Shown here piece by piece: positions 24,091 through 45,404 of a DNA stretch of 64,000 bases; positions within the stretch are counted from its first letter, which is position 1, and each line of letters opens with the position of its first letter. The position numbers were made by a program, and so were the translations under genes. The notes beneath the pieces are model-generated. The model was not told where the DNA came from. It worked only from the letters and a program-made list of their open reading frames with translations, and did no database searches. Source of the DNA: an uncultured Planctomycetota bacterium (GTDB lineage Bacteria; Planctomycetota; Planctomycetia; Isosphaerales; Isosphaeraceae); contig CAVTTN010000002.1 in the NCBI GenBank assembly GCA_963737655.1, forward strand, positions 3,840,001 to 3,904,000, in the 5' to 3' direction.

Positions 24091-24712
24091 TCAACCCCGA
24101 AATCCGGCCTCTCGTTCGAGCCCTTGTTCAGGTTCGGTCCGCCGCCGGAGGATCAACGATGCCCCGATCCCTTGAAGCGCCACCCACCAGGAGACGCCGA
24201 AGATCAGGTAGTTCCATCGCGGGAAAAAGACCATCAAGATGCCGGTGAGATACATCTGAACGGCCGGAATCAGGAACCGGGCGCCGAACAACCAGGCCAT
24301 CGTGGCGAAGCCGAACGTGCTGAGGGTCGCCCAGGTGGGCTTGAACCAGTCGTGCTCCCAGCCCGAGAGCGCGTTCATCGTGGCGGCGTTGAAGGCCAGG
24401 ATCAGGAACGTCCCCCAGACCCTCGCGATCACCGCGGCCGCCGACGACGAGCGCAGCAAGCCGGGGCCCGCAACCGCTCGAATCGTCGCGAGCGAAACCA
24501 GGAGGTCCGCGACCCAGAGGGCCGGGTGCCTCGGGTCGCTCCGGACCCCGGGATCGACCAACGCCTGGCAGGCGAGGAACGCGGCGAGGTGGACCCAGCC
24601 GACGGCCATCAGCGCGACGCCCCATCGCCCTCTCGCGGCGGAGGCCGCGGCCTCGTCGCGAAGGGCCTGTGCGCGGAAGGGCGGGCCGAACCCGCCGGGG
24701 ACTCGCGATCAA
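24091..24712 (-). CDS. Integral membrane protein, last gene of the PKS operon (start uncertain, possible frameshift)
   Basis: Several TM helices from ATG 24609. That frame stays open up to the ATPase stop; a TTG at 24712 overlapping the stop is one base out of frame. Confidence 0.65.
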
Positions 24713-25383
24713 CTCGGGACAATCTGGCCATCGCGGAGCTTCACCTCGCGGTCGGCCGAGGCGGCGACCTCGGCACTGTGGGTGACCATGACCAGGGTCA
24801 ATCGCCTCTCCGCCTTCAACCTCTTGAGCAATTCGAGGACGTCGGCCTGATTGCGGCTGTCCAGGTTGCCGGTCGGTTCGTCGGCCAGGATCAGGCTCGG
24901 TTCATTGGCCAGCGCCCGGGCGATCGCCACCCTCTGCCGCTCGCCGACCGAGAGCTTCCTGGGAAGATGGGACTTGCGATGCCCCATGCCCACCTCGTCG
25001 AGCAAACGGCCCGCGCGGTCGAGCCGCTCGGACCGGGGCCACGGCCCCTCGAACATCGGCATTTGCACATTCTCAATCGCCGAGAGCGACGGCACGAGGT
25101 GGAACGACTGGAAGACGAACCCGAGCTGTCGCGAACGGAAGGCGTCGCGATCGAGCGTCCCGAGCGGCCGGCCCCGGAAGAACACTTCGCCGGCCGTCGG
25201 CCGATCGAGCCCGCCGAGCAGGTAGAGCAGGGTGCTCTTGCCGCAGCCGCTCGGCCCGGTGATCGCGACGGACTCCCCTTCGGCCACCTCCATCGAGACG
25301 CCTTGAAGCGCTTTCACGTCTCCATCGGGATACGTCTTCACGAGCTCGGACGCGGAAAGCAACGGTAGGGTGCCCTCACTCAT
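24709..25383 (-). CDS. ABC transporter ATP-binding protein (LolD/MacB-like)
   Basis: [46 protein letters not shown]. Confidence 0.93.
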
Positions 25384-26503
25384 GGCGGAGCGCCTCCGTG
25401 GGGTCGAGCGAGGCGGCTCGGAGGGCCGGATAGACCCCTCCCAGGAGGCTCAATCCCGCCCCCATCGCCAGGGCGATCCCGAAGGCGGCCGGAGGGAGGT
25501 TGGGGTCGATGAAATTCCGCGACGTAGGCGCCTGGAGCAAGGCCCAGAGGCCCGCGTACGCCAGGGACATCCCTCCCACCGCCCCGAGGAGCCCCAGGGC
25601 GAATGCCTCCCCCAGGATCATCCCCAGGACGCGTTTCCTCTTCCACCCGATCGCTCGCAAGACGCCGATCTCCCCGGTCCGTTCGAAGACCGCCATGATC
25701 ATCGTGTTCAGCACGCCGATGGAGCCGATCACCAGCGCCACCAGCGACGTGGTCCAGGCCATCGCCTTGGCAAGCTGAATCTGATAGTCCCGGTTGACGT
25801 ACTCCTTGGATGCCTCGGCCATCACTCCCGGAATCCTGGACTCGATCTCCTTCGCCAGGGCGGCGATTTTCGATCCGTCCGCCGGGAAATCGGTGGAGAT
25901 CACGAAGGCCGTCACCTGGCCCTCCCGTCCCATCATCGTCTGGAGGGTCGCCAGGGGAACGATGAGACTCCCGTTCTCGAAAATGCTCTCGCTATGGAAC
26001 ACGCCAACGACTCGGAAGGACTCACCGGCCACGTCCAGTGAATCGCCCGGCCGCTTGTCCAGGCTCCGGGCCAGGACTCGTCCCAACAGCGCCACCTTGC
26101 CTCCGCCCGGCCGGAGGTTCTCGCCCTCGTCGATCTTCAGGTCCCTCAACAGGAGACCGCCCGGCTCCCAGCCGTTGACGACCACGCTCACCAGGTTCGC
26201 CTTCTCGAACGTGACGGTATCGACGAGGGATTTCGCGACTTCCCGGACGCCCGGAAACGCCTTCAAACGGTCCGCCAGCGAGGCATCCAGGTTGCTCGAA
26301 AGCCCGTTGCCGATCCCTCCGCGGACGACCACCAGGTCAATCCCCTTCGAGCTGTAAAGCTTGAGGAACGATCGCTCAAAACCCCACGCGATGCCCATCA
26401 ATACCACAACCGCGCCCACGCCGACGGACAGCCCCACGACCGTGAGGATCGTTCGGACCGGGCGATTGATCAGGTTCTTGAGAATCAGGGTGCTGAAGCG
26501 CAT
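25376..26503 (-). CDS. ABC transporter permease (MacB periplasmic + FtsX-like domains)
   Basis: KNLINRPVRTILT, NTMIMAVFERTGEIGVLRAIG, YPALRAASLDPTEALR. Confidence 0.92.
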   Translation of the reverse strand: MRFSTLILKNLINRPVRTILTVVGLSVGVGAVVVLMGIAWGFERSFLKLYSSKGIDLVVVRGGIGNGLSSNLDASLADRLKAFPGVREVAKSLVDTVTFEKANLVSVVVNGWEPGGLLLRDLKIDEGENLRPGGGKVALLGRVLARSLDKRPGDSLDVAGESFRVVGVFHSESIFENGSLIVPLATLQTMMGREGQVTAFVISTDFPADGSKIAALAKEIESRIPGVMAEASKEYVNRDYQIQLAKAMAWTTSLVALVIGSIGVLNTMIMAVFERTGEIGVLRAIGWKRKRVLGMILGEAFALGLLGAVGGMSLAYAGLWALLQAPTSRNFIDPNLPPAAFGIALAMGAGLSLLGGVYPALRAASLDPTEALRHE

Positions 26504-26537
26504 GGGTGGGATTTCGCAATCCTGGAGTCGGAGATGT

Positions 26538-27386
26538 TCACGAAGGGCTCTGCCCCACGAGCACATAGCCCACCTTCCGCCAGATCAATTCGTACCGGCT
26601 GCCGGGCAAGACCCTCTGGCCGATGGCGGCGACGTCGAGGTCGCGATAACGCTCGACCATCTCGGTGAAATCGTCGCCCAGCTTCAGCAGCTTCGAGACG
26701 ATCCAGCGATCCACGCCAGGCAGGCCGATCTTGCGGAACAGCATGCGATCGGTCAGGTCCGGCACCTCATCGGCCACGACGATCGTGCCGCCGGGCCTGA
26801 CGGTCCGGGCCATCTCGCGGAGCGCCTTCTCGGGGTCATTGAAGTAATTGAACCCGCCGATGCTCAGGGCGCAGTCGAATGAGCGATCGGCGAACGGCAG
26901 ATCTTCGGCCTCTCCCTGGACGAGAGTGACATCTCGCCCCGTTTCCCGGACCCGCTTCATGCAGGCCGAGAGCTGGACCTCGGACACGTCCACGCCCGAG
27001 ATCGCCCAGTCCTTCGGGAGCCAGTCGAGATACACGCCGTCGCCGACGGCGACATCCAGGAGCCTCAAGCCCGGCCCCGTGGGGAGATGTCGGAGGATCT
27101 TGTCGCGAGACCTTCGCTCGCCGCCCAGGCTGACGAACGTGAACCACTCCCAGAACCGGAATTTCGGCCAGTCGGGGCCGTTGTAGAAGTCGGCGGCGAC
27201 CTTGTTATTGGCCGAGGTCTCCGGCCTGACGACGAACACGCCGTCGCGGACCGGATACGAGGCCCCGCACCCCGGACACGCGGGGATTCCGCCGGCCATC
27301 GCCGCCCCGCACGAGACGCACCGCCATGAGGGCGAGGTCATCGAGGGGGTTGATTCGGCAATCCTCTCGGGCGAGGTCGTGCTCAT
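26538..27386 (-). CDS. Class I SAM-dependent methyltransferase with N-terminal zinc ribbon
   Basis: CVSC...CPGC; LLDVAVGDG; AEDLPFADRSFD; EMARTVRPGG. Confidence 0.88.
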   Translation of the reverse strand: MSTTSPERIAESTPSMTSPSWRCVSCGAAMAGGIPACPGCGASYPVRDGVFVVRPETSANNKVAADFYNGPDWPKFRFWEWFTFVSLGGERRSRDKILRHLPTGPGLRLLDVAVGDGVYLDWLPKDWAISGVDVSEVQLSACMKRVRETGRDVTLVQGEAEDLPFADRSFDCALSIGGFNYFNDPEKALREMARTVRPGGTIVVADEVPDLTDRMLFRKIGLPGVDRWIVSKLLKLGDDFTEMVERYRDLDVAAIGQRVLPGSRYELIWRKVGYVLVGQSPS

Positions 27387-28210
27387 GGTCGCTCTCTCCT
27401 CGGGCCTTCGACCAGACAATAGCCGAGCCGCCTCCAGATCGGAAGCCGATCGGCCTCGGGCCAGGTCTCTCGGATCAACGCATCCAGGTCCAGCTCGGTC
27501 GAGAGGACCATAGAGACGAATTCGGGCGGCAAGCCGACGCGTCGCATCCACCAGGCATCATACGCCTTGAGGCCGATCAGATGGCCGAGACCGAACCGCT
27601 TCAGGTCCGACCTCTCGTCGGCGACCACGACCACGCCCCCGGGCCGGGTGACGCGTCTCATCTCGCGAACGGCCGCAGCCGGGTCTCGGAAATAATTGAA
27701 CCCGCCGACGGTGAAGCAGGCATCAAAGCTGGCATCCGGGAAGGGGATGGCCTCGGCCTCGGCGAGGACCAGCCGGCCCCTCGTCGTCGGAAAGCGGAGG
27801 GCGCAGGCTTCCAGAGGTCTTCGCGCCAGGTCGAGCCCGTAGATGGATCGATCCCCGGCGAGAAAGGCCAGATTTTCGCCGTCGCCGATCCCCACTTCCA
27901 GGACTCGCGAGGCGGCTTCGGGCAGATGCGCCAGGATCTCGCCGCGAGCCTTCTTCGGACCCCCGACGATCCGCAAGAACAGCCGTTCCCACGGCCGAAA
28001 ACGCGGCCAGGACGGGCCGTCGTAGAAGTCGGCCGCCACGCGATTCCGGCCCGTCAGGGGCCCGATGGCCTCGAGGATGCCATCAATCCAGGGATATTCG
28101 CGAGAACAACCCGGGCAACGAGCGCAACCGCCCAGCGCCGACCCGCAATCGAGGCAGGCGGCGAGATCACGGGCGGTCGGCGATTCGGGCTTCGAGTCGG
28201 TCACGTTCAT
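27383..28210 (-). CDS. Class I SAM-dependent methyltransferase with N-terminal zinc ribbon
   Basis: CLDC...CPGC; VLEVGIGDG; AEAIPFPDASFD; EMRRVTRPGG. Confidence 0.88.
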   Translation of the reverse strand: MNVTDSKPESPTARDLAACLDCGSALGGCARCPGCSREYPWIDGILEAIGPLTGRNRVAADFYDGPSWPRFRPWERLFLRIVGGPKKARGEILAHLPEAASRVLEVGIGDGENLAFLAGDRSIYGLDLARRPLEACALRFPTTRGRLVLAEAEAIPFPDASFDACFTVGGFNYFRDPAAAVREMRRVTRPGGVVVVADERSDLKRFGLGHLIGLKAYDAWWMRRVGLPPEFVSMVLSTELDLDALIRETWPEADRLPIWRRLGYCLVEGPRRERP

Positions 28211-28219
28211 GAGTGGCGA

Positions 28220-28988
28220 TCAAAACTCCGTGGTCAGCCCGCGAGGGCCGGCATGGTCCATGATCCGGTCGAACAATCCGTCGGGCATGTGTCGCAAGAC
28301 GGCCATCCCGAGGGCGGTGTCCAGCGGGAAGACCAGATTGCGGGGTCGCGTCTCGACGGCCCGAACCAGGTATGGCGCCGCCTCTTCCGGCTCCATCATC
28401 TTCGGCGTCTTGCGGAATGGGGTATCGCGGGTGATCGCGGTGCGGACGAAGCCGGGGCAAACCGTGGTGATCGTCACGCCTCGGCGCTTGAGGGCGGGCC
28501 GGAGCCCTTCCAGGTAGGCGATCAACGCGGCCTTGCTCGCCGAATAGCCGGCCATCCACGGCATTCCGCGAAATCCCGCCACGCTCGCCACGCCGACGAG
28601 ATGTCCGCGTCCTCGCTCGATCATGCCCGGCAAGACGGCGTCGATCGCGTTCGCAACGCCCATCACGTTCACGGCGAGCATGGCGCGGAAGCCGTCCAGG
28701 TCCAGGTCGGGCACCGCGGTCAGACGGCCGAGGCCCGCGCAGCGCGACGAGCGCATCGAACGGTCCGACCTTCTCCTGAAGGTGGGCCACGGCCTCGCCG
28801 ACCTCCGAGCGATCCGTCACGTCCGCCGTGGCCGAACCGGCAGCCCAGGAGGCGGAGGAAAGTCCCTCAGCATCGCGATCGATCAGCCCCACACGATGGC
28901 CGCCTTCGGCCAGCGCCTTGGAAGTCGCCCGGCCGATGCCGTTGGCCGCCCCCGTGATCAGGACCGTTTGAGGCCGGGGACGTTTCAT
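28220..28988 (-). CDS. SDR family oxidoreductase (frameshifted near 28742)
   Basis: ITGAANGIG from ATG 28988 in one frame; CAG, VASVAG, YSASK and VCPGFVRT in the next frame. Confidence 0.85.
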
Positions 28989-29830
28989 CGCGAGGCCCCC
29001 GCCATCGAGAAGCTCTGAAGGAAATCGACGACGGCCGAGACGAACGCCTCGCCATTCTCTTCCGGTGCGCGATGCTGGGCTCCGGCGATCAGGACGCTCC
29101 GGCAATCGGCAAGGTGCTCGACGAGATAGTCCGCCGTCGTGAGGAATGGCGAGTGCTCTCCGTAGAGGGCCAACGTCGGCTGACGGACGGCGAGGATCGT
29201 TTCGACCGTCAGGCCCGCCTCGGCCTTGGAGTCATCGCCACACGTCGTGTTGCCCAGGCGGAGCAGGCGATTCAGGCCCGGAAGGCCGACGGCGCGGCGG
29301 AACTTGCGGAGGCCCTCCTCGTCGAGGTGGAGCACCTGATCGAAAAACTTGCCGAGATCGTACCAGTACTCCTCGGAGAGCGTCACACCGGCGTCCTCGG
29401 CTTCCTTGCGGAAGTTCTGCCAGTGGCCCCAGCGGCTCAGGTGCTCCAGGTGCCGGAGCGCCGGGAAATACGGGTCCGAGAGCACGAGCGCCTCGACCCG
29501 ATCCGGTCGCAGGCTCGCGGCATGGAGCGCGATCACGGCGCCGAAGCTGTGGCCGACGAGCCGGGCCTTCTCGATTCCCAGCTCGTCCATCAGGGCGAAG
29601 AGGTCGGCGGAATGGTCGGCCGAGGTATAGCCCGATGGCGGAGCGTCGCTGTAACCGTGGCCGCGAAGGTCGAATGCGGTCACGCGATGCGTTTGCGAGA
29701 GCGCCTGGATCGCCCGACAGAGGAACCAGATCGAGAGGTCGCCGGTCACCCCGTGGATCAGGACGACGTCGGGACCGCCGCCCTGCTGCTGGACGTGGAA
29801 CTTCAGGTCGCGGGTCGTCACGAACGGCAT
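28985..29830 (-). CDS. Alpha/beta hydrolase, candidate thioesterase
   Basis: LIHG, DLRGHGYS, GHSFG nucleophile elbow, C-terminal His (AQH). Confidence 0.88.
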   Translation of the reverse strand: MPFVTTRDLKFHVQQQGGGPDVVLIHGVTGDLSIWFLCRAIQALSQTHRVTAFDLRGHGYSDAPPSGYTSADHSADLFALMDELGIEKARLVGHSFGAVIALHAASLRPDRVEALVLSDPYFPALRHLEHLSRWGHWQNFRKEAEDAGVTLSEEYWYDLGKFFDQVLHLDEEGLRKFRRAVGLPGLNRLLRLGNTTCGDDSKAEAGLTVETILAVRQPTLALYGEHSPFLTTADYLVEHLADCRSVLIAGAQHRAPEENGEAFVSAVVDFLQSFSMAGASR

Positions 29831-29843
29831 CGGGGTCCTCGCA

Positions 29844-30116
29844 TCAGTCGATATGCTTCTGTAAGAAGGCGACCAGCTCGCCCAGGACCAGATCCCTCTC
29901 CTCGCGGCGGCCCAGCTCGGCCATCATCTCGCCGAACGGCAACGGCCGCCCGTAATGGGTCTGCAGGGCCTCGCCCAGAACCACGGCATCGATCGAGGCC
30001 AGCCCCAGGTCGGCGAAGAATCGCGTCTCCCGCGTGATGGGCGTGGAATCGTCGCGGCCGAGCGTTTCGCGGAGCACCAGGGCCACGTCATCGAGCACTT
30101 CGCGATCAGAACTCAT
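29844..30116 (-). CDS. Stand-alone acyl carrier protein
   Basis: 90 aa, acidic, FFADLGLASIDAV phosphopantetheinylation motif. Confidence 0.85.
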   Translation of the reverse strand: MSSDREVLDDVALVLRETLGRDDSTPITRETRFFADLGLASIDAVVLGEALQTHYGRPLPFGEMMAELGRREERDLVLGELVAFLQKHID

Positions 30117-33100
30117 CGAAATCGGCCTCCTGACCGAGTGTCCACGCCCAGGCGAACCCGTTGCGCAGCCCCGTCACGGCGGACCACGTCCGGTCCTGGG
30201 AATCCGAACGGAGCCGGATGAACACCCGGCCGTCGGGTCGCTCGGCGATGGCCTCCGCGCGATCGAAATCCACCCCGGATGCATTCGCGACGGCCCGCCT
30301 CGCCGAGATCCGCCGGGCCTCCGAGCCCCTCGCGATCCTGCTTCGCGACGGTCGCGATTCCGACCCCGGGGCGAATCGCCAAATCGGTCGTCGCGAGGGC
30401 GAGTGCGACCATCCCCCGGCCGGATTCCGGCTGGGAAACGGCGATGGCCAGAGTCGAAGGCCCGATGGGCCTCGATCGATCGAGGCTCTTCACGATTGGG
30501 TGGCCGTCCGGTCCGTCCTCGACCGACAGGTCGGCCGGGAACCGAGCCTGATCCTCCGAGGCCAGGCGACGAACGGCCTCCTTCCCGGCGATCCGGCCGA
30601 GGAGGAACACGTTGCGAGCTGGTTCGGGGAGGCGGGTGCCCTGCCGTTTTTCGTCGGGGGACAGTTGGATCTGTTCGAGGACGTCCCGCCAGACGGGCCG
30701 CGTCATGTCGGCCGGCGGTTCGAGCCAGACCGCCACGGCGTCCATCAAGGTTCGGCCGTCGGGACCGTGGAGCGTCAGAGGCTCGCCGAGGAGTTCGCGA
30801 TCGGGCCGACGAAAGACGTCGCGATAGCGGCCTGGCCAGTGGAACCGCCAGTCTTCCCAGTCGTCGATAGCCATCCACAAGCTGCCATCGGGCCGGACGA
30901 GCTGCGCATCGACCCGGACCCGTTGCCTTTCCAGCAGGCGGATATTGATCCGACACGCCACGTCCGATCCTGACGGCGGCGATTCGCCGAAGACCCTCCA
31001 CTCGCCCATCCGGAGCGGGAAGATCACGTCGCCTTCCTTCAATCGATCGAGGCCCCAGCATCCGAGCAGATGGGTGAAATTGTCGATGGCGATGGGGTCC
31101 GTGAGCAATCCGTCGGCCTCCGCCTCGTCGCGGAGGAGACCGCCCAGAGGAAGGATGCGAATCGTCCCCTCGACGGCCGAATCCGACATCACGCCCACTC
31201 GCACCAGGGCCTGCAGCGCAGGCCCGTGGAACAACCACCCTTCGCCGTAGAGGCTCGTCGCGGTAAATTTCGAGTCCTCCGGGCTCGGGACCCAGAAGGC
31301 CGGGGCGACCGGCGGTTCGGGCCGGGATGCATCGAAAACCGCCAGCCCCTCGACCACCGCCGTCTCGGCCGATTTCATGGCTTCCACGGGGCCGCGATTG
31401 AACATAGAAACGCGGATTTCGCCCGAGGAGACGGCCTCGGCGACGAGTTCCAGGACGATCGGTTCGTCCTCGTATCGGACCCATCGATTGGCGCGGACGT
31501 CCCGGAGGCCCGTGAGGACCAGTCCCGGCGCCAGCCGCGAGGCGGCCTCGGCGAGCATCTCGGCCATCACGCTGAATGGCAGGACCGGCAGCCCAAGCCG
31601 ATCGGGGTCGACGGCCGAGACCCGCCGCCCTCCCAGAGTATGATGGGCCGCCACCGGGTCGCCGTCGGCATCCAGGAGCAGGCGAGAAACGGCCCGACGG
31701 CCCGGCACAAATTCCAGGAGCTCGCCGGCCCACGGGCCGGCCCGGCGATCGCTGATCCCTTCGAACGCGCCCGAGGCGGGAGAAAGGTACGCCGCCATGA
31801 CCTCGCCCTGGGTGACGAGGAACTCGTCCATCGTGCGGAAATACTCGAGCATCGCCGGATCGGCAAGCGGTTCTCGATCAGGCCCGACCGGGAACGGGAG
31901 ATCGAAGCCCGATTCCCCGAGCGTTTCGAGGCCATCCAATCGGTCCGAGAGCGCCTCGGGGAACAGGGGACGGGCCGCTTCGGCGGCCCACGGATCGAGC
32001 CGGGCGGGACGATCTCGGAGCCATTGAACCATGGCTTCGGAGAGTTTCATCTCGGGGAACCCGATCGCCAACGGCGGGACCGGCCGGATCGAAGGCGGCG
32101 GGGCCTCGAGGTCGACGGTCGTGGGCCGTCTTCGCGCGAACAGGAACGTCGGGTCGATCGCGATCCCCTTCGCGAACAGCGACGCCACGAGATGATTGAG
32201 TTGCAACAAGCCCGAACGCCGGGGCAAATTCGCCGCCACGGCCAGCGAGGGGCGGCCCCGGAGCGTGTCCTCGACGAACCCGGCCAGGTTCCCTCGGGCC
32301 CCGACATCGATGAACACCCGAATTCCATCGGCATACATCGCCTCGATCGTCTCGCGGAACCGAACCGGCCGCGACCACTGCCCGGCCGCCAGGTCGCGGA
32401 CCGACCTGGGGTCGTCCGGCATCCGTTCGGCCGTGGCGCACGAGAAAATCGGGACGTGGGCGGCCGATCGGATCGTCTCCTCAAAAAACTCCCGGATTGG
32501 ACCGACGAGCGGGGCGAATTGCGGTGTGTGGTACGCCCGATCGAACGGCAGAAGCTCGCAAATCACGCCCTCCGAACGAAGCGATTCGACGAACCGCTCG
32601 GCGGACGGCGGCGGTACGGCCACGACGACCTGATGCGGGCAATTGTCCATCGCGACGACCGCGCCCGGACATTCACCCAGCCGAGCCTCGATCCGCTCCC
32701 GACCCGCGGCGACCGCGACGAGACTCGCCTCGGGGATCTCGCCCGACGCTTCGAGGCGGTCGAACAGGGCGGCCAGCCCGGCGAACCCATCCTCCAGGGC
32801 TCGATCGACGCGGATCGCCCCCGAGGCCGCCAGCGCGAGGAATTCTCCGCTGCTGTGACCGGCCAGGGCGTCGGGCGACAAGCCCAATCGGATCAGGATT
32901 TGATACAAAGCCCATTGCGAAGAGAGGACGCTGTTGGTCGCCTGGCCGACCGACCAGAGATCGGCGCCCGAGGCATCTCCAAACAAAACATCGCTCGGCC
33001 GGATCGGTGGATCCGCCATCGCGCCGATGCGGTCGGCGGTATCGAAGAGTGCGCGGACCTCGGGGAAGTGCGGGCAGAGATCCGCCAGCATCCCGGGATA

Positions 33101-34852
33101 CTGCGAGCCCTCGCCCGGAAACAGGAACGCGAGTCGTCCGGCCTCGGGATCGTCCCAGAAATAGGCCCCGCGCGCATCGCGGATCGACCGGCATTTCGGG
33201 TCTTCGAGCCTCGGCAGGACCGATTGAAGACGCTCCGAGAGGTCGGCCAGCGACGAGACGACCAGCCCGAGCCGGCATCGGCCTTCGCGACGTTCCGAGG
33301 CGATCGAGAACGCGACGTCCTTGAGGCTCTCGGATCGATCGCCGGAGAGCCATCCGAGCAACGATCGGATTCGAGCCGCGAGCCCGACGCGATCCTCGGC
33401 CGAAAGCAAGATCGCCTCGGAATCCCATCGGGGGAGGCATCCCGGCCCCAGACGATCCGCCGAGGGGTGCTCTTCCAGGATGGCATGCGCACTGATCCCG
33501 CCGAACCCGAAGGCGTTCACGGCCGCGCGTCGAGGCGACGAATCGCCGACGATCCACGGCCGAAACTTCGGGTTCAAGGCGGCCGGGGCCCGGTCGTCAC
33601 GCAGCAATCGGTGGGGCGTCTTTGCGTCGTCACCCGGCGGGATCGCTCGATGAAATAGGCAAAGGCATGCCTTGATGAGACCGGCCATCCCGGCAGCGGG
33701 CATCGCGTGGCCGATCTGGGCGGAAACGGCCCCCAGGACTCGCGATCCGGAGGGCGGAAACACGGCCCTCAGGGCACGAAGTTCGGCGAGGTCGGACGCG
33801 GGCACTCCCAGGCCGTGCCCTTCGATCAATCCGACGCTGGCCGGATCCACTCCGGATCGGCGATAGGCCCGCCTCATCGCGCTCGCGTGCCCCTTCGCCC
33901 CCGGGGCCGTCAGGCCGACGGATCGGCCGTCGCTGGCGAGGCCGACGCCTCGGAGGATCGCATAAACGCGGTCGCCGTCGCGGTCGGCCTCGGAGAGCCT
34001 CTTGAGGACCATCACCCCCACGCCTTCGCCCGGGACGGTCCCGTCGGCGTCGGCCGAGAACGGCCGGGGCTGCCCGCTCCGGGAGAGGGCCCCGAGTCGG
34101 CTGAAGACCATCGGAAAATCGACGTCGGACGCGAGGTAAACGCCGCCGACGATCGCCAGGTCGGCCCGTCCCTCGGCCAGAGATCGGCAGGCCAGGTCGA
34201 GCGCCACGAGCGAGGACGCGCTCGCGGCATCGACGACGAAGCTCGCCCCTCGAAGGTCCAGCCGGTTCGCCGCCAGCCCGGCCGTCGCGTTCGAGAGCTG
34301 GCCGGGGATCGTCGCGGCCTCGAACGGCGGGAGGCTGGATTTCAGGTCCGCACGGATCGCCTCGAACTCGGCCTCCGACCAATCGGGATGGAGGCTTCGG
34401 AGGATCGCCACGGTCTGCGCCGCGATCCTGCCGTGCTGGAGCCTCGTCAGGTTCCCGCGATTGAAGTAATTCCCTCGACCGATCACGACCTCAACGCGTC
34501 GGCCGTCGGGCACTCCGTCCGGGAAACCGGCGTCGCGGAGAGCGTCCTTCGCGGCCGAGAGCACGAGGAATTGCTCGGGTTCCCCTCCCGCGACCGTCAC
34601 GGGCATGATCCCGTGGGCCGCCGGGTCGAAGGGGATCGGGCCTTGCAGATAGCCTCCCCTTCGGGAGGCCACCCGGTCGTTGTCGCGAGACTCGGGATCG
34701 TGGAAGACGTCCGCGTCCCAGCGATCGGGAGGGACGTCTCCCAGGGCCGATCTTCCGGCCAGGATGTTCTCCCAGAACGTGAACAGATCGGGAGCGCCCG
34801 GGAACCGGCAGCCGATCCCGACGATCGCCACGTCTCGCGATCGGCGGCTCAT
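30106..34852 (-). CDS. Pfa-like synthase subunit 2: KS(Cys->Ser)-AT-DH-degenerate PPTase (probable frameshift at 30326-30329)
   Basis: VAIVGIGCRFPGA, DAASASSL, EGHGLG, QIGH; AT FPGEGSQ/GHSSGE/RAYH; DH HHTLGG...PVLP, LFHGPALQ; PPTase-like LLGRIAGKEAVR. Confidence 0.9.
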
Positions 34853-37800: not shown

Positions 37801-40800
37801 GTTGAAGTTCACCGCCTCGACGTCCGGCATCCCGGCGAGAAGATCGGCGATTCGAGCGGGTGAGGCGAGGATGGCGGCCATCGCGCCGCGATCCTCGCCG
37901 GCCGAATCGAGGAGGAAGCGGCCCCGGGCCTCGGAAACCTCGGCGAGCGCCTCCGTCGAGATCGCCCCGGCGGCGAACAGGGCGACGAACTCGCCGTAGC
38001 TATGCCCCGCCACCACGTCGGGTCTCAATCCGAGGTGTTCCAGCAGGTGGAGGACGCCGACGCTCGCCGCGCCCACGGCCGGCTGGGCCGCGTCCGGACG
38101 GATCAACGCATTGCGGGCCGTTTCCCGATCCCGATCGGAGAAGGCACGGGGCGGGAACACAATAGGCCCGACCGCCGATCGTCCCCGGGCGATCAGGGCC
38201 GAATCGAATGCCTCGAACGACTCGCGGACCTCGGCGAACGCAATGGCGAGGTCCGTGAGCATCCCGGGCGACTGGGCCCCCTGCCCCGGGAAGAGGAACG
38301 CGATCCGTCCTTCCGGGAACGCCGGCGAGGCGCCAAACCATGTCCCACGAGGGTCGGCGATCTCGGCTTTCCCGCCTCGAATCGCCAGGATCGCCGCGTC
38401 CAGCTTCTCCCGAAGGTCATCCAGGCCGTCGGCGACGATCGCCAGCGAGGCGCCTTCGGCCGTGACCTTCCCGACTCGTTCCGCCAGCGAGTGGGCCAGG
38501 TCTCGGGGTCGGGGTTTCCTGCCCGATCGGAGCGCCGTCGAGAGGGAATCCAGTTCTCTCGCGAGCGATTCCCGATCCGGGCTCCTCCAGACGAACAGCT
38601 CGGCGGGCCAGTCGCGAGACGGGGCCATCGGCGGTTCGGGATCGCGGTCGTAGGACTCCAACACCGCGTGAAAATTCGTCCCGCCGAACCCGAACGCGGA
38701 AACCCCGGCCCGCCTCGGGCGAGTCGCGTCCGAATGCAGCCAGGGGCGGATCTCGGCGTTCACATGCACCGGCCCGTTCCCCAGATCGGCCTTCGGATTG
38801 GGGGTCTCGACGCCGATCGTCGGCGGCAAGACGCGATGATGGAGCGCCAGGGCCGCGTTGATCAGGCCCGCCATCCCGGCGGCGCACTTGGCGTGGCCGA
38901 TCGAGGACTTCACCGACCCCACGGCGCACGATCCGGCCGAGGCGCCGGCCTCACGGAGCACTTCCGAGAGCGCGGACACCTCCACCACGTCGCCCACCGC
39001 CGTGCCGGTCCCGTGGCACTCCACATATCCAAGGGTTTTTGGATCAATGCCCGATTTCCGATACGCCCGTTGCAGGGCCCGGATCTGCCCTTCGGGACGA
39101 GGCGCGGTCAGCCCTCGGGCCCGGCCGTCGCTGGACGAGCCGATCCCCTTGATCACGGCATAGATCCGGTCGCCGTCCCTCTCGGCGTCGGCCAGCCTCT
39201 TCAGGACGATCGCCGAGACCCCCTCGCTGATCACGATCCCGTCGGCGGAGGCGTCGAACGGCCGGCAGCGCCCCCGGGGCGAAAACGCCTGCGTCTTGCT
39301 GAAGGCGAGATAGGTGAGCGGATTTTGAACCGTGTCGGCCCCGCCCAGGATGACCATGTCCGAAGCGCCGCTCTCCAGCTCTCGGACCGCCAGGTAAGCC
39401 GCCGCCAGGGATGACCCGCACGCCGCATCCACCGTGAAGTTCGAGCCCCCGAGGTCGAATCGATTCGCGACTCGGCCGGCGGCCACGTTCAGCAGGAAGC
39501 CGGGGAACGAATCCTCGGTCCATTCCGGGAGCAGATCCTCGCACTTCTCCATCATCGCCCGGCCGCCGCCCGGCTCGACGGTGTCGAGCATCGGCAAGTA
39601 GGAGCGGAAGGCATAGCCCATCGCCACTTGCGCGGCCCCTCCGCCGATCCCGAGGACGACCGAGGTTCGCTCGCGAGGAAAAGGGCGGTCGGAATACCCC
39701 GCATCGTCCAGGGCGGCGCGAACGGCTTCGAGGGTCAGCAACTGAACCGGCTCGATCGAGGGCAAGCTGGTGGGAGGCATTCCGTACCGCAGCGGATCGA
39801 ACGGGACATCGGGAACGAACCCGCCCCACTTCGAGACGATCTTGTCGGGAGCTTTGGGGTCGGCATCGTAATAGAGCCGCCAATCCCACCGATCGGGCGG
39901 GATTTCGACGATCGCATCCACGCCCTTGAGCGTGTTTTCCCAGAACGTCCGGGCATCTCCAGCCCCGGGAAAGATGGCCGAGAGGCCGACGATCGCCACG
40001 TCGGAAGGCTGCGGCCCGGGCGTCGCGACCTCGGCGCGATCGTATGTCGCCTCAACGGCCCAATTGCACACGTCGCGGTGCAGGGCGTCGATCGTGGTGA
40101 CGGCCGATCGCAGGGCGGCCGCCTGGCCGACCATGTACAGGCCGTCCTGACGCTGCTGCTGATCGGAAACGGCCACCAATGGCGATCCCTCGCCGTCTCC
40201 GCGAGCCAGCCCCTTGGAGGCGATCCGCAACCGCCCGGCGTTCAAGCGTTCCAGTTCCTCGCGGATCGCCTCGGCCGGTTTTCCCGAGGCGAGGAGACGG
40301 GCGCGTTGCTCCTCGAACCGATCGACGAACGGCGAGGCGTGAATCCGGACCTCGTGCCCCGGGCCGGTTTCGAGCAGGACCGTTTGCCGGCAAGCGATCG
40401 CCTCCGCCTGGAACCGGGCCACGATGGCGCCGGTGTCCACCGCCTCTCGGGTGAACAGATAAGCCGTCCCCATCAGGACGCCGACCTTCGCCCCGCGATC
40501 GGCCAGGGACGCCGCGATGGCCGAGACCGCCGAGGCCGATCGGCTGTCGTGAATCCCCCCGGCGAACAGGGCGTGGACCTCGGACGCGGGAACCCCGCCC
40601 TCGATCGCCGCATCCAGGACCTCCACGGCCTGCTCCCACAGGACCAGGCTGGACCTCGGCCCCACGTGCCCGCCGCACTCCCTTCCCTCGAACACGAACC
40701 GACGGACCCCGTCCTTCAAATATTGGGCGAGCAGACCCGGGGAAGGGGCATGGAGATAGGTGGCGATCCCGTCGCGTTCCAGCTCGCGGGCCTGGTCGGG

Positions 40801-42009
40801 CCGCCCTCCCGCGATCAGGGCGAACGGCGGACGAGCGCCTCGGATCGCCTCGACCTGCTCGGCGCGGAGGTCCGGCGGGACGAAGCCGAGGACACCGACT
40901 CCCCACGGTCTGCCGCCCAGCCGTTGGCTCGCCTCCTTCAACAGAGACGCCACCTCCTCCCCTCGGAGCATCGCCAGGGCGAGGAACGGCAAGGCCCCGC
41001 CGTCGGCGACGGCCTCGGCGAATCGAACCGTGTCGCTGACCCGTGTCATCGGTCCCTGGACGATCGGATACCGCGTTCGGTGGCTCCGGGCGAGCGGCGA
41101 TCCCTCGGAGATCGGCCGGAGCGACCGCGAGGCCGCGAGGTCTCGGTCGATGGTCCGCTCGAATTCCTGGAGGATGCCCCCGACCGTGAGGAACGTCCTG
41201 GCCAGAGGCCCGGCGAACGCGGAATCCTGACCGATCGGCAACGCCTGATCGATCCGCCAGCCGACCCACCGGCGAACCGCCTGATTCCAGGCCTGGCCGC
41301 CTTCGGAGGCGGCTCGCCGAAGGGCGACGAGGGCCTCGGAGCCCCGCGGGGCGAAAACCCGGATCGAAGGACCACCTTGAGGGCCGATCGCGACCGTTTC
41401 GCCGCCGTCGAATCGGCCGATCCGCTCCCGGAACGAGGCGGCCAGACCCGTCTCGCGGGCGAGCAGAAGGGCCCCCTCGACGACCACGCCGGCCGCCCCC
41501 GCCGCCAGGCAGCCGGCCGCCGATCTCGGGCCGATCCCGCCTCGGACCCAGGCCGGAACCTGGGTCTTCCCCAGGACTTCCTGGAGGAGGATGAACGTCG
41601 AGAAGTCGGAACCGAACCCGCCGGCCTCGTGGCCGGCGAGGATCAGCCCGGCCACCCCGGCCTGCTCGGCCCGGCGGGCCGAATCGGCGCTTCGAACTTC
41701 CGCGATCGGCAGACGGCCGGTCTGACGGACCCGTTCGGCAAAACCGCTCCAGTCGTCCGAGGCGGTCCCGATCACGACCTTCAGGGTCTCGGGCGCCCCG
41801 GCGAATCCGGCCTCATCCCACGACGCAACCGGCAACCTCACGCCGAACGGGCGCTCGAGGAAGCGGCTTGCCGATCTCCAATCCAGCGCCGAGGAGGTCT
41901 CCAGGTCCAGGACGCCGAGGGCACCCGCCCGTCCCGCCGCGACCACCGAACGCAAGCCCGCCGGCCCTCCGGGGCCGATCGCGACGAGTCTCGGAAGATG
42001 ACCGATCAT
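34849..42009 (-). CDS. Pfa-like synthase subunit 1: tandem FabK/PfaD-like ER-KS-AT-ACP-KR
   Basis: YPIVQGPM, EGRECGGH, FAGGI; KS DAACGSSL/HGTGT/KSSIGH; AT GHSYGE/CAFH; ACP LEADLGIDSIKRVE; KR GGARGIT/GQSDYAAAN. Confidence 0.93.
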   Translation of the reverse strand: MIGHLPRLVAIGPGGPAGLRSVVAAGRAGALGVLDLETSSALDWRSASRFLERPFGVRLPVASWDEAGFAGAPETLKVVIGTASDDWSGFAERVRQTGRLPIAEVRSADSARRAEQAGVAGLILAGHEAGGFGSDFSTFILLQEVLGKTQVPAWVRGGIGPRSAAGCLAAGAAGVVVEGALLLARETGLAASFRERIGRFDGGETVAIGPQGGPSIRVFAPRGSEALVALRRAASEGGQAWNQAVRRWVGWRIDQALPIGQDSAFAGPLARTFLTVGGILQEFERTIDRDLAASRSLRPISEGSPLARSHRTRYPIVQGPMTRVSDTVRFAEAVADGGALPFLALAMLRGEEVASLLKEASQRLGGRPWGVGVLGFVPPDLRAEQVEAIRGARPPFALIAGGRPDQARELERDGIATYLHAPSPGLLAQYLKDGVRRFVFEGRECGGHVGPRSSLVLWEQAVEVLDAAIEGGVPASEVHALFAGGIHDSRSASAVSAIAASLADRGAKVGVLMGTAYLFTREAVDTGAIVARFQAEAIACRQTVLLETGPGHEVRIHASPFVDRFEEQRARLLASGKPAEAIREELERLNAGRLRIASKGLARGDGEGSPLVAVSDQQQRQDGLYMVGQAAALRSAVTTIDALHRDVCNWAVEATYDRAEVATPGPQPSDVAIVGLSAIFPGAGDARTFWENTLKGVDAIVEIPPDRWDWRLYYDADPKAPDKIVSKWGGFVPDVPFDPLRYGMPPTSLPSIEPVQLLTLEAVRAALDDAGYSDRPFPRERTSVVLGIGGGAAQVAMGYAFRSYLPMLDTVEPGGGRAMMEKCEDLLPEWTEDSFPGFLLNVAAGRVANRFDLGGSNFTVDAACGSSLAAAYLAVRELESGASDMVILGGADTVQNPLTYLAFSKTQAFSPRGRCRPFDASADGIVISEGVSAIVLKRLADAERDGDRIYAVIKGIGSSSDGRARGLTAPRPEGQIRALQRAYRKSGIDPKTLGYVECHGTGTAVGDVVEVSALSEVLREAGASAGSCAVGSVKSSIGHAKCAAGMAGLINAALALHHRVLPPTIGVETPNPKADLGNGPVHVNAEIRPWLHSDATRPRRAGVSAFGFGGTNFHAVLESYDRDPEPPMAPSRDWPAELFVWRSPDRESLARELDSLSTALRSGRKPRPRDLAHSLAERVGKVTAEGASLAIVADGLDDLREKLDAAILAIRGGKAEIADPRGTWFGASPAFPEGRIAFLFPGQGAQSPGMLTDLAIAFAEVRESFEAFDSALIARGRSAVGPIVFPPRAFSDRDRETARNALIRPDAAQPAVGAASVGVLHLLEHLGLRPDVVAGHSYGEFVALFAAGAISTEALAEVSEARGRFLLDSAGEDRGAMAAILASPARIADLLAGMPDVEAVNFNGPRQTVLAGGRDAIAGAVARAEADGLRARLLPVGCAFHTKRVAGARGPLAELLSTRIARSPDRPVYSNLDARPHPSDASEIARRMGEHACRPVRFAEMIEAMHSDGARVFVEVGPGGILPGLVGSILGDRPHLAVGCDSPGRPGIVSLLHALGRMFASGVSMDLSRIFADRSVRILDLTDLPTTEGPVLSASTWLVNGTRARPIGEPEPRRLEMGPALPLPQTNGHSTKPLFDPSPDPHRNGNGRMNGHHTNGHVAPKEVLENSPAPASDRVVLAFQETMRKFLEVQQATMLGYLAKKGDAIPASPPAKSPPSNGSMEGRQETPAPIVIPAPRAVEARAAAAPSALDRSTIASKLVAIVQERTGYPAEMLKLDLDLEADLGIDSIKRVEVLGSLRDAFPGLNLGADSTAMDELTRSRTLGAIVDRVESLVGARPAPATTVFPPSPAPRAVQAVRRLTLHVVPSPIPADRATLAPCGVVIVSDDGRGIARRIAERVEAMGHPVEIVGETELEAPTSAFSERMAEIRSRGPIAAIVHALPLRILPPEGLDRQSWSSRLGPEVRGLFRLAHAAADDLGRSAKAGGSALIAATGLGGAFASDGRASAFSPSQGAIAGLVKTLAREWPEVRARVVDLGPSESPDRLADRLLAELLADDPRAEVGYRGDSRVHLTSRNSPLDSQRSPAFDIRPGEPIVISGGARGITGLVARELARRWRPTLLLLGTSPLPGAAERPETASLTDPSALKSALLQIARRDGRSLAPSDLEASYRDLLRSREIRENLRHIREEGQVVEYVRADVRDASALSGIIESWRSRFGPIAGLIHGAGVIHDKLLRDKTLDSFDRVLGTKVEGAVNLARLIGPDSPRFAAFFSSIAGRFGNRGQSDYAAANEALNKLAIWLDRRWPGRVVSAIWGPWSGVGMVSDLEGHLGRQGLGMIPPEIGPSRLIDELLFGRKGEVEVILAGDLGDLEKPPGRRETRNLEEVPR

Positions 42010-42218: not shown

Positions 42219-43106
42219 TCACGGCTTGGATTTCTTCGCCGCGTCGCGACGGAGCCGGCGAATCGCGTCCTGGGCGATCGGTCCGAACTTCGAACGGAGG
42301 ATCGGCGCGCCGTCGAACCACGCCTCGGGCTCGACGAAGGCGAAATGCCCCTCGACGAACAGGGCGTTCGGATCGCCCTTGATCCGGCTGATTTTCACGA
42401 AGCTCGCCCCGCCGGGGTAGGGCCTGGACTCACCCCGGGGCTTGCCCGTCGAGCGGTCCAGGGGCTGCCAGCGGTTCGGCAGGGTGGGGTCGCCGTCGAA
42501 CGACCGATCCGCCGACGAGGCGACCACGAGCGACTCCGCCGATCGCGTCGCGACGACGTGATCGGTCGTCTCGAACGCGATCCGGTCCAGAAGCGACGCC
42601 GAGAGGTGAGAATACCACTCGCGGAACGCGTTGGACGCGGGTTCCGGGTGGATTTTCCGCCTGGCAAGTTCATCCCCAGTCAAGAGTTTTGTCTCGAACC
42701 GCATGTTGGCCGCTTCGGTCGGCCGGTCGGCCGAGAGCCGGGCCGCCTCGGCGGGATCGAGCGTCTGGAAGTCCGCGTGGACGACGAAGATCAGCTCGAC
42801 GACTCGTATCGTCGCACCCGGGACCTTTTGATCCCGAGTCTTCAGGACGAACGGGGCCGTGACCGAGTCGCGGAGGAGGTCCCGGGCGGCCGTCTCGCCT
42901 CCGGCGAGCTTGCGGATGGCTTCGGTCTGGGCCTCGGCAGTCATCCCGTCCGTCAATTGGGGTTCGGGAAGGCGGATCTTGGTGCCTCCGGCGTCGAAGC
43001 CGTCGTGCACAAGGGCCGTGAGGATGTGATTGCGAGCGTGCTCCATTTCCATCTCGCTCGGCGAGGGATTTGGAAAGAGCAGCAGGCCGATCAGGACAGG
43101 CGTCAT
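42219..43106 (-). CDS. Exported hypothetical protein upstream of the PKS operon
   Basis: ATG at 43106 after GAAGGA; short hydrophobic N-terminus; coding-like composition only from this point of the long ORF. Confidence 0.7.
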   Translation of the reverse strand: MTPVLIGLLLFPNPSPSEMEMEHARNHILTALVHDGFDAGGTKIRLPEPQLTDGMTAEAQTEAIRKLAGGETAARDLLRDSVTAPFVLKTRDQKVPGATIRVVELIFVVHADFQTLDPAEAARLSADRPTEAANMRFETKLLTGDELARRKIHPEPASNAFREWYSHLSASLLDRIAFETTDHVVATRSAESLVVASSADRSFDGDPTLPNRWQPLDRSTGKPRGESRPYPGGASFVKISRIKGDPNALFVEGHFAFVEPEAWFDGAPILRSKFGPIAQDAIRRLRRDAAKKSKP

Positions 43107-43220
43107 GGCGCGGTCCTTCCGGTAAGAACGATTCGACGGGCAAGTTTTTCCCGGGTCGGGCCGATGGAAGATCCTGTCCCCGGGCCGCGATGCGCCGGGA
43201 CATTCGGAGGGCCCGCCTCG

Positions 43221-44333
43221 ATGGCTCGCTTTGCTAGCAAGTTTCATACCCTGGGGATGGTCGCGGCGGTCGCCGGCTCGATGGCCGGAGGTTGTTCCCC
43301 GTTGCCGGTTTCGGGCGATTTTCGCGGAGTTTTCCGGGGCGACGCGAACGTGGCCACGACGGTCCAGGGTTCGCTGGAGGTGAAAGTCCCGGCCCTGCCC
43401 GAGCCCGGTCCGCTTCGCGCCGAGGTCGTCCGGGCCTCGCCCGGAGGTCCGGGGCTGACGAGAATTGCCATCATCGACGTGGACGGCCTGATCCTCAACC
43501 AGAATTTCACCGGATTGCTGTCGGCCGGGGACAACCCGGTCTCTGCCTTCCGCGAGAAGCTCCAGGCGGCGGCCGGAGATCCGGCGGTTCGCGCGGTGGT
43601 GCTGAGGGTTAACAGCCCGGGAGGGGGCGTGACCGCCTCGGATATCCTCGCCGAGGAGCTTCGACGGTTCCGCGAGGCGACGGGCAAGCCGGTCGTCGCC
43701 TGCCTGATGGACCTGGCCACCGGGGGGGCTTACTATGTCGCCGTCGGCGCCGATCGCGTGATCGCCCACCCCACGACCATCACCGGCGGGATCGCGGCCA
43801 TCTTCAACATCTTCAACCTCGCCGACGCCGCCGCCACGTTCAACATCACCTCCAGACCGATCAAGGCTGGCGAGCTGGGTGACATGGGCAGCGTGATGGC
43901 CGAGACCGGTGTCGAGGAGACGACCAAGGGACGGGCCCTCCTCCAGACGATCGCCAACTCCTACCGAGATCGGTTCCTCGCCCGGGTCGTCCAGAGAAGG
44001 CCGGCCCTGACCGCATCGGACCGCGCGACCCTGGCCGACGGCCGGGTCGTCCCGGCAAGCCAGGCGCTGTCCCTCCACCTCGTCGATCGGCTCGGCTACC
44101 TGGACGATGCCCTCGCCGAGGCCGAAGGGCTGGCCGGTTGCCCGGGTTCGGAAGTCATCCAGTACCAGAGGCCGGGCGCTCCGTCGCGGTCGGTGTATGC
44201 GATCGCGCCCAACTCGCCGATTCAGGGGGACTTGCTGCCGTTCAGCTATCCGGGACTGGATCGGAGCAAGGTGCCGACCTTCCTCTACCTGTGGGAGCCG
44301 GACCCGACGATCCTCCGGCAGTCCGGCCGATGA
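43221..44333 (+). CDS. S49/SppA-like lipoprotein, probably inactive
   Basis: Lipobox-like AGGC; IAIIDVDG, VVLRVNSPGGGVTASD, GKPVV, DGRV...QAL..LVDRLG. Confidence 0.82.
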   Translation: MARFASKFHTLGMVAAVAGSMAGGCSPLPVSGDFRGVFRGDANVATTVQGSLEVKVPALPEPGPLRAEVVRASPGGPGLTRIAIIDVDGLILNQNFTGLLSAGDNPVSAFREKLQAAAGDPAVRAVVLRVNSPGGGVTASDILAEELRRFREATGKPVVACLMDLATGGAYYVAVGADRVIAHPTTITGGIAAIFNIFNLADAAATFNITSRPIKAGELGDMGSVMAETGVEETTKGRALLQTIANSYRDRFLARVVQRRPALTASDRATLADGRVVPASQALSLHLVDRLGYLDDALAEAEGLAGCPGSEVIQYQRPGAPSRSVYAIAPNSPIQGDLLPFSYPGLDRSKVPTFLYLWEPDPTILRQSGR

Positions 44334-45404
44334 GCGAGGCGAACGCCGAGGGATTGACGGGAGGGCGGCTCGTCCTGGTGACCGGGGCCGGCGGATTCGT
44401 CGGCGGCCATGTGGCGAGGGGGCTGGCCGAGGCCGGCTATCGGGTCCGGGGGTTGGTCCGGCGTCCCCCGCCGATTCAGGCCGGCGACCCGGAGATCGCC
44501 TGGAGTTTTGGCGACCTGCGCGACCCCAACGACCGGTGCCGGGCCCTGGAGGGCGTCTGGGGGGTGGTCCACTGCGGAAGCTGGGTCCGCCTGGGCCACG
44601 ATCCTCGAGGACTCAGTCGGTCGGTGAACGTCGAGGCGACGCGAGGGCTCCTGGCCGATAGTCGCGAGGCGGGCGTCTGCCGGTTCGTCTATACCTCCAC
44701 GCTCCAGACCCTCGCCGCCGGGACCGCCGAATCCCCGGCCGATGAGGACCGGCCCTGGAACCTGGAGACGGTCCGCTCGCCTTATACCGAGACCAAACGA
44801 GAGGCCGAGGCGCTGGTCCTCCAGGAAGGACAGGCCGGTTCGATGGGAACCCTGGCCCTTTGCCCGGCCATGACGTTAGGACCGAGGGACGCCGGCCCCA
44901 CCTCGACCCGGGTGATCCTGGAGATGAGCCGGGCCCGGGTGGTCACTCTGCCGGGAGGCGGGATTCCGATCGTGGATGCCCGGGTGCTGGCGGTCGCTCA
45001 TCGTCGGGCCCTGGAATCGGAGGCTCTCGGGCCTGCGGTTCGCGGTCGCCGGGCCGTATCTGTCGTTCCGAGAGATCGCCGAGATGGTGGCGAGGGTCTC
45101 GGGACGGCCGTGGCGGATTATCCGCCTCGGGGACCGATGGCAACGGCCCCTGACCGGGTTCGCCGATCTGATCGACCGGACCCTCGGCGGGCGATGGCTC
45201 GCGGCCTCGGCGGCGATCGTGGCCGGCGGCTTCCTGAGACTTCACGTCAGCGGCGCCCGGGCCGATTCCGCGTTCGGCCTGGTCCATCCCGAGCCATTCG
45301 ACACGATCCGCGACACCCTCGAAGACGCGAAGAAAGCGGGTCGGGCCCCCTGGCTCCGCCGCCTCGGCCGGCCGGGCCCGGCGTCGATGCCGGAATCGCC
45401 CTGA
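44330..45404 (+). CDS. NAD-dependent epimerase/dehydratase (HpnA/dihydroflavonol reductase-like), frameshifted near 45025
   Basis: VLVTGAGGFVG, FVYTST, PYTETK; continues in the next frame as LRFAVAGPYLSFREIAE; ATGA overlap with the S49 gene. Confidence 0.85.

Follow-up and report, generated by a model that had tools for sequence, protein, structure and literature searches.

ArsA of Azotobacter vinelandii is described as making the very long fatty acids that go into phenolic lipids (PMC4824345; PMC3098273), and PfaB as a pseudo-ketosynthase (pseudo-KS) joined to an acyltransferase (AT) that lacks the malonyl-binding Arg and transfers long acyl chains (PMC12895367). A layout with fused pfaDA and a pfaBC-phosphopantetheinyl transferase (PPTase) gene has also been described, its products being given as uncharacterized (PMC13291983, 2026). 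We analyzed a locus related to these systems in a 64,000-nucleotide (nt) stretch of contig CAVTTN010000002.1 from an uncultured Isosphaeraceae planctomycete, referred to here as the window. The locus (positions 24091 to 45404) encodes two polyketide synthase (PKS)-type subunits, PKS1 and PKS2, together with tailoring and export genes. Its synthase core is the catalogued, widespread Pfa-like “secondary lipid” layout (fused pfaDA/pfaBC-PPTase), which has no known product. A literature search, which left most subscription journals outside its coverage, found no paper on the cluster and no known product; the original prediction of an uncharacterized system was supported for the product and not fully for the synthase core. 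The accessible parts of three planctomycete papers give type I PKS clusters by count only (PMC5352709, PMC7716859, PMC12673574). From sequence features and structural models, we consider it probable, though well short of certain, that a two-subunit synthase of the Pfa/Ars type makes a very-long-chain acyl group that is tailored on a free acyl carrier protein (ACP) and delivered to the envelope by a MacB-type ATP-binding cassette (ABC) transporter and a secreted protein with a predicted START fold.

Pfam and motif searches resolved PKS1 (34849..42009, minus strand, 2386 amino acids [aa]) into the order ER′ (pseudo)-ER-KS-MAT-ACP-KR, where ER is enoylreductase, MAT malonyl acyltransferase and KR ketoreductase. 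It begins with a pair of FabK-like ER repeats, of which the first has lost the GGH His, and the ER is of the FabK/PfaD type. The KS keeps its Cys-His-His residues, the MAT (GHSYG) keeps the malonyl-binding Arg, and a single ACP with the motif DLGIDSIKRVE corresponds to the one PP-binding stretch found by Pfam. PKS1 scored 1047 bits against the PfaA model TIGR02813, above the cut-off of 1010, and is colinear with a Beijerinckia ArsA homologue, with 55% identity in the KS and ER.

PKS2 (30106..34852, minus strand) has the order KS-AT-dehydratase (DH)-PPTase, and its KS (KS2) carries a Cys-to-Ser replacement and has lost both Thr residues of the HGTGT motif, which reads HGLGV. The motif DAASASS/A was present in 27 of 28 Isosphaeraceae loci (the remaining one was misaligned), whereas all 49 other loci have DAAC and so keep the Cys. 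In a quick tree with SH-aLRT support only, Isosphaeraceae KS2 sequences formed one clade (SH-aLRT 100) within a 32-row KS2 clade (97). In 15 of 15 synthase loci from other planctomycete families, as well as in the paralogue L164, KS2 is missing altogether, and the distance from KR to DH in KS2-less loci is 1.6 to 2.3 kb, as against 3.2 kb. The L164 cluster itself (L164:6460-19997, genome G040) has a second subunit without a KS, groups with the f101/f108 type and is followed by a Rieske oxygenase. The PKS2 AT (AT2) carries GHSSG. The malonyl-binding Arg is missing from the window copy, from 18 of the 28 loci of the family and from almost every other locus; where KS2 is absent or the locus is of the f108 type, all 16 loci read have other residues at the position. 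Because KS2 has lost its Cys in Isosphaeraceae and has been deleted in relatives, PKS2 likely works like PfaB, as a dead KS with a long-chain AT. On the sequences compared, loss of the second KS is specific to planctomycetes and is reported here for the first time.

The PKS2 DH is a PKS-type double-hotdog domain (PS-DH) with His and Asp motifs. No FabA domain was found in the cluster by a scan that returned three FabA stretches in L167. The ER type, the single ACP motif and the PKS-type DH had all been named in the original prediction and were borne out, and the absence of a FabA domain together with the one ACP upheld its view of a Pfa-like iterative system that is not a PUFA (polyunsaturated fatty acid) synthase. 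The tail of PKS2 is a PPTase-type domain; intact Tautonia tails match Pfam ACPS. Of the two PPTase motifs tested, x(G/D)xP and hShxH (from PMC3098273), the former is present and the latter is degenerate in the window and present in Tautonia. The DH-PPTase half showed 29% identity (E 4e-45) to a Beijerinckia ArsD homologue.

The open reading frame (ORF) listing and family scans placed ten minus-strand genes in one orientation from 42009 to 24091 and confirmed the gene functions originally named. Of the nine junctions, five are overlaps (−4, −11, −4, −4 and −8) and three are short gaps (9, 13 and 34 nt), as predicted; the ninth, before a membrane-protein gene, measures 99 nt and falls outside this tight spacing. 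That gene (24091..24609, minus strand) was rejected as a cluster member, contrary to the original assignment: it is a core family gene, found in 115 of 121 family genomes and in 47 of 47 high-quality ones, unlinked to the cluster and matched by none of the 78 loci related to it, and it happens to follow the operon here. The conserved operon ends with the LolD/MacB-type ATPase gene, and the system comprises 12 genes, nine coupled and three upstream; it is real and conserved. GC content is flat over the whole region. A promoter and terminator scan of the locus gave counts at the level of chance, and a search of plasmid records returned none that spanned 80% of PKS2.

A pattern search of the genome collection gave 230 matches, of which 183 were relatives; the 78 loci kept belong to the Planctomycetota, Actinomycetota, Bacteroidota, Acidobacteriota, Gemmatimonadota and Myxococcota. 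The original prediction had staked itself on the tailoring and transport genes co-occurring with the synthases. We found the full order DH-ACP-hydrolase-SDR-MT1-MT2-permease-ATPase (SDR, short-chain dehydrogenase/reductase; MT, methyltransferase) in 23 of the 24 family loci whose sequence was long enough to show it; another 5, out of 29, were too short. A synthase orthologue was present in 83 of 121 Isosphaeraceae genomes, after three matches at 30 to 35% identity were dropped as paralogues. Among these 83 genomes, the MT pair occurred in 83, the START gene in 79, the SppA-like gene in 75 and the permease gene in 71, versus 1, 4, 3 and 3, respectively, of the 38 synthase-negative genomes. All 68 genomes carrying the extended SDR were MT positive (lists compared by eye). 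The three 5′ genes (START, SppA-like and extended SDR), which had been noted as flanking, therefore belong to the system by co-occurrence.

Outside the family, the START gene was found in 0 of 300 genomes sampled across the phylum, most of them belonging to other classes, and in 43 of 227 genomes of a class sample, including 28 of 66 in family f101, whose hydrolase relatives bear the names Gemmata and Fimbriiglobus (a Gemmataceae-like family); the class sample overturned our earlier view of START as restricted to Isosphaeraceae. The synthase with fused ER accompanied it in 30 of the 43 START-positive outside-family genomes and in 26 of the 28 in f101. In 15 outside-family planctomycete loci, the permease and ATPase genes directly follow the hydrolase gene in 12, the SppA-like gene adjoins the end of PKS1 in 13 and START lies within the cluster in 7; SDR/MT genes follow in 1, and methyltransferases are absent from 14. 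From this gene content, the conserved core consists of the synthase, ACP, hydrolase, ABC, START and SppA-like genes, and methylation is an Isosphaeraceae add-on, so that the predicted methylated lipid would apply to Isosphaeraceae and not to 14 of the 15 related planctomycete clusters. A Thermoguttaceae cluster (L038:14918-23665) combines a Cys-intact KS2 with two SDRs, START, the ABC pair, an SppA-like gene and a prenyltransferase-fold gene.

The START gene (42219..43106, minus strand) lies 209 nt upstream of PKS1 and encodes a 295-aa protein with a short signal peptide and a predicted helix-grip fold that matches no Pfam family. Its AlphaFold2 (AF2) model has a pLDDT of 93 and matched StAR and MLN64 (VIA Z 11.8) and CERT (11.2), with a Foldseek E value of 4e-6. 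A hydrophobic N terminus was present in 71 of 74 START-gene homologues and in 1 of 74 control segments. On the strength of the model, we predict a secreted START lipid-transfer protein. The ABC pair comprises a 375-aa MacB/FtsX-type permease (25376..26503, minus strand; MacB_PCD plus FtsX) and the LolD/MacB-type ATPase (24709..25383, minus strand); matches of these genes to DevA, LolD and LolCE were below cut-off. Neither the window cluster nor the gene order conserved among its relatives includes an HlyD-type membrane-fusion adaptor gene, and a predicted complex of START with the periplasmic domain of the permease scored 0.11.

The third component is an SppA (peptidase S49)-like predicted lipoprotein (43221..44333, plus strand), which matched PF01343 (E 2e-25), SppA structures in the PDB and, just below the cut-off of 155 bits, TIGR00706 (145 bits). 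It has Gly at the positions of both the Ser nucleophile and the Lys base. Across 34 sequences, the Ser position holds G in 18, S in 11 and A in 5, and the Lys position holds K in none; a check of the dyad in 13 further loci gave Gly in 13 of 13. The solved Bacillus subtilis SppA chains are, we assume, Lys-to-Ala mutants, and the 52-residue spacing fits. An LxGC-type lipobox is conserved in most rows. Because the Ser/Lys dyad is missing, the lipoprotein is likely not a peptidase. The linked export module is apparently undescribed, and the most telling features of the system, all beyond the original prediction, are the dead or deleted KS2, the PPTase domain, the START protein and this likely inactive lipoprotein.

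Between the synthase and ABC genes, all on the minus strand, lie a stand-alone 90-aa ACP (29844..30116; LGLASID), an alpha/beta hydrolase with a Ser nucleophile (GHSFG) and a C-terminal His (28985..29830), predicted to be a thioesterase or acyltransferase, a classical SDR (28220..28988), MT1 (27383..28210) and MT2 (26538..27386). The nearest solved structures to the SDR are 17-beta-hydroxysteroid dehydrogenases (17-beta-HSD) XI and 13, which places it closest to lipid reductases of that type. MT1 combines an N-terminal four-Cys zinc ribbon with a class I S-adenosylmethionine (SAM) fold; its paralogue MT2 (43 to 44%) also has a zinc ribbon and a class I fold, and matches of the MTs include UbiE/MenG, below cut-off. 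The extended SDR (HpnA/OleD-like; 44330..45404, plus strand) has as its nearest PDB entry 3WJ7, which we take to be a fatty aldehyde reductase.

In the mechanism we favor, PKS1 (KS, malonyl-type AT, ACP, KR and ER) and the PKS2 DH would cycle iteratively, giving saturated units or a retained hydroxyl where the DH is skipped. A saturated chain would be expected because there is no FabA isomerase and the DH is of the PKS type; according to one study, a DH-PKS step is followed by ER saturation and cis bonds need a FabA-type DH (PMC9702510). The KS-AT part of PKS2 would serve as a scaffold and long-chain acyltransferase that passes the finished chain to the stand-alone ACP, and the Ser hydrolase would release or transfer it. 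In Isosphaeraceae, the two SDRs might then reduce the chain and the two SAM enzymes methylate it, most likely on oxygen. The ABC pair would extract the lipid from the inner membrane, START would carry it through the periplasm, and a noncatalytic docking or receiving role could fall to the SppA-fold lipoprotein. Judged by sequence, the product is likely an envelope lipid with a very long chain that is for the most part saturated or hydroxylated, and in Isosphaeraceae it is likely methylated as well.

Several observations weigh against this mechanism. The export module is not exclusive to the synthase, since its genes also occur without it: START, permease and SppA-like genes are present without the synthase in G017 and G060, both 99% complete, and several loci that lack a synthase have START next to the permease or the SppA-like gene. 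The fused-ER synthase had no match in 13 of the 43 START-positive outside-family genomes, a count that covers START-positive genomes only. START also lies far from the operon in several genomes (e.g., G107 to G109). Many family genomes are incomplete, and all are related, so the co-occurrence counts are not independent. As for the individual proteins, a common fold does not by itself show START lipid binding. The fold search for the MTs tied N-, O- and C-methyltransferases with the cyclase SpnF, and the acceptor atom cannot be predicted from such a fold. Ten of the 28 AT2 domains in the family do have Arg at the malonyl-binding position, and sequence does not reveal in which direction AT2 transfers the chain.

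The direction of transfer matters for the alternative that survives best, although we think it unlikely: AT2 and the free ACP would load a premade long-chain or unusual primer, possibly tailored first by the SDR and methyltransferases, and PKS1 would only extend it. Starter-loading ATs lack the malonyl Arg, as does AT2 in the window. PfaB has moreover been described as binding palmitoyl-CoA and moving it to ACP in vitro (PMC12895367). Set against this, none of the clusters read contains an acyl-CoA ligase or primer-making gene. A Ser-based decarboxylase role for KS2 is unlikely to be essential, because KS2 has been deleted in 16 related loci and both Thr residues of HGTGT are lost.

In a more doubtful alternative, the product would be a secreted amphiphile (surfactant, antimicrobial or signal), with ABC and START serving efflux or self-protection instead of the envelope. 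MacB-type pumps export small molecules, the cluster is patchy (83 of 121 genomes), and actinomycetotal and bacteroidotal relatives carry GT1 glycosyltransferases typical of glycolipids. However, the HlyD-type adaptor present in the related cluster L170 is absent here, the secreted protein has a carrier-type fold, and a single-copy, family-wide clade with flat GC looks inherited, not recently acquired.

We give very little credence to the view that the pathway has simply decayed in this genome. It would account for the frameshifts in the PKS2 tail (near 30,300 to 30,350), the classical SDR (near 28,740) and the upstream extended SDR (near 45,030), and for the lost catalytic motif of the PPTase. 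Nevertheless, of 62 loci elsewhere that could be tested with relatives' proteins, 6 also showed a frame change, a similar background (about 1 per 4,000 aa outside versus 3 in about 7,000 aa inside). SDR and PKS2 are open frames in the closest genomes, and the extended SDR is one open frame in G058. From the background and the open SDR and PKS2 frames, the three frameshifts are likely assembly errors. The PPTase motif is degenerate in the cultured relatives L014 and L015 as well, and this genome (G000) has two other PPTases.

Marginally less credible than decay is an Azotobacter-like route in which a type III PKS encoded elsewhere turns the chain into alkylresorcinols that UbiE-like MTs modify. 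The ArsA/ArsD homology and the below-cut-off UbiE/MenG matches fit such a route, as does a type III PKS in G000, and planctomycete type III PKSs make alkylresorcinols according to one paper (PMC10896814). The two systems nonetheless show no codistribution (both in 57 genomes, type III PKS only in 31, synthase only in 26), and the Tautonia strains compared in PMC7716859 are reported without type III PKS, yet T. sociabilis (L017) has the cluster. The idea that the cluster is just a PUFA synthase, supplying omega-3 acids or the C31:9 alkene, can be dismissed almost entirely: PKS1 does exceed the PfaA cut-off, but the cluster has no FabA domain, no KS-chain length factor (KS-CLF) pair and only one ACP, and the family has a separate canonical PUFA synthase. 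That synthase (L166:7287-20000 and L167:1-6259, G060) has three FabA domains followed by OleA/OleB-like genes and is a candidate source of the C31:9 alkene.

Returning to the favored envelope lipid, a more specific product can be suggested. Table 2 of PMC7397252 gives (omega-1)-hydroxy C28-C32 acids in three Gemmataceae, some monounsaturated. An iterative synthase that left out the first dehydration could yield acids of this type, and we treat this as a lead only. It is possible, and we propose it tentatively, that in two planctomycete families the synthase makes (omega-1)-hydroxy C28-C32 acids or a derived lipid, which a MacB-type ABC transporter, START and a protease-dead SppA-fold protein route to the outer membrane. 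If true, this would be a START-based counterpart of LolCDE-LolA-LolB for lipids and an undescribed route. Elsewhere in G000 (C2, about 1,916,000-1,919,800; L227:8045-11792), a FabF-like KS, an ACP and two lipid A acyltransferases stand in a row and resemble an AcpXL/LpxXL-type unit; this locus could make the (omega-1)-hydroxy acids instead.

In bacteria with an unusual envelope, the system points to a dedicated periplasm-crossing lipid route that would combine a protein of predicted START fold with a repurposed peptidase. The planctomycete branch offers a natural experiment, with the second KS active, dead or deleted and methyltransferases present or absent, and close relatives, some with and some without the cluster, are well assembled. 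Genus g48 includes relatives of both kinds, and the cluster is carried by the cultured strains Singulisphaera sp. PoT, Aquisphaera insulae JC669 and Tautonia sociabilis GM2012. Soil and peat Isosphaeraceae would have a biomarker in a specific methylated lipid.

Other genes near the locus or in these genomes were also recorded. The membrane protein at 24091..24609 is single copy and of no known family, with look-alikes in Myxococcota. Window positions 21909-23987 encode a CARDB-domain protein of 692 aa that is rich in Ser and Thr and has an N-terminal motif of the planctomycete type; its adjacency to the cluster is not conserved. G000 further contains two small unstudied lipid clusters, one with two tandem FabF-like KS genes, a hydrolase and a GH3 ligase (L224:4614-10450) and one a KS-SDR-MacB permease-HlyD unit (L225:7466-12083). 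A second family cluster (L169:4831-19106 and L170, G058) shares the same core, with a Cys-intact KS2 and an intact PPTase, and also carries a hydrolase, an SDR, a GT1 glycosyltransferase, two MTs and HlyD/ABC genes; its product is likely an exported glycolipid.

Among described systems, types M/N (Renibacterium/Frankia/Chitinophaga; Shulse and Allen 2011) likewise have two fused genes followed by an ACP and an alpha/beta hydrolase; the match to their layout rests on the taxa and on PMC13291983. We found the same two-gene core with ACP and hydrolase in Frankiaceae, Chitinophaga, Chryseobacterium and others. Their KS2 shares the 32-row clade with that of the window but keeps its Cys in 49 of 49 loci, whereas it is lost here and KS2 is deleted in planctomycete relatives. 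Types M/N end in GT1 glycosyltransferases and PapA-like acyltransferases or one MT, unlike the SDR, two zinc-ribbon MTs, ABC and START of the window. Among L048, L067, L055, L060, L072 and L130, the bacteroidotal clusters close with a pair of GT1 genes and a pair of genes for PapA-like acyltransferases, and the actinobacterial ones with GT1 and a methyltransferase; the hydrolase motif in this group is often GNSYG or GYSFG. A possible link of actinobacterial relatives to the glycolipids cycloviracin and fattiviracin was dropped when no supporting paper was found.

Compared through Beijerinckia indica homologues (L129) and not the A. vinelandii proteins, ArsA/ArsD (type P) has the same ER′-ER-KS-MAT-ACP-KR order, at 33 to 55% identity per domain, a DH-PPTase unit that is 29% identical and, like the window system, one working KS. 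Type P differs in having two ACPs, where PKS1 has one, and in an operon that includes two genes for type III PKSs, where the window cluster has none. In the window, the DH-PPTase is fused behind KS-AT, and an extra ACP, a hydrolase, SDRs, methyltransferases and the export module are added. PfaB of marine PUFA synthases shares with PKS2 the pseudo-KS and the AT without malonyl-binding Arg, but the sequence match is weak (TIGR02816, 19 bits; cut-off 144). Since the PKS2 KS, unlike PfaB, derives from an active KS clade and is fused to DH-PPTase, the likeness is likely convergence. Canonical PUFA synthases (types A/B) share the PfaA-family KS-MAT-ACP-KR protein but have tandem ACPs, a FabA-type DH/isomerase and a KS-CLF didomain; the window cluster has a single ACP in PKS1 and neither of the latter.

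For export, the MacB_PCD plus FtsX permease and LolD-like ATPase are shared with MacB/LolCDE-type ABC transporters, but the MacAB-TolC efflux pump has an adaptor gene with the pump that is absent from the window cluster. The heterocyst glycolipid pathway (HglE/DevBCA) likewise combines a Pfa-like synthase with MacB-type ABC genes, and LolCDE-LolA works by a carrier-plus-ABC logic that the window module shares in outline. Compared with both, the window cluster has no adaptor, glycosyltransferase or thioester reductase domain, and a protein of predicted START fold is the putative carrier. That protein shares its fold with known START domains (StAR, MLN64, CERT and Xanthomonas 3QSZ; Z 9.7 to 11.8 over 166 to 197 residues), but at 6 to 14% identity, with no Pfam match and with a signal peptide, and it differs from them in that its family is planctomycete and linked with a synthase and an ABC pair.

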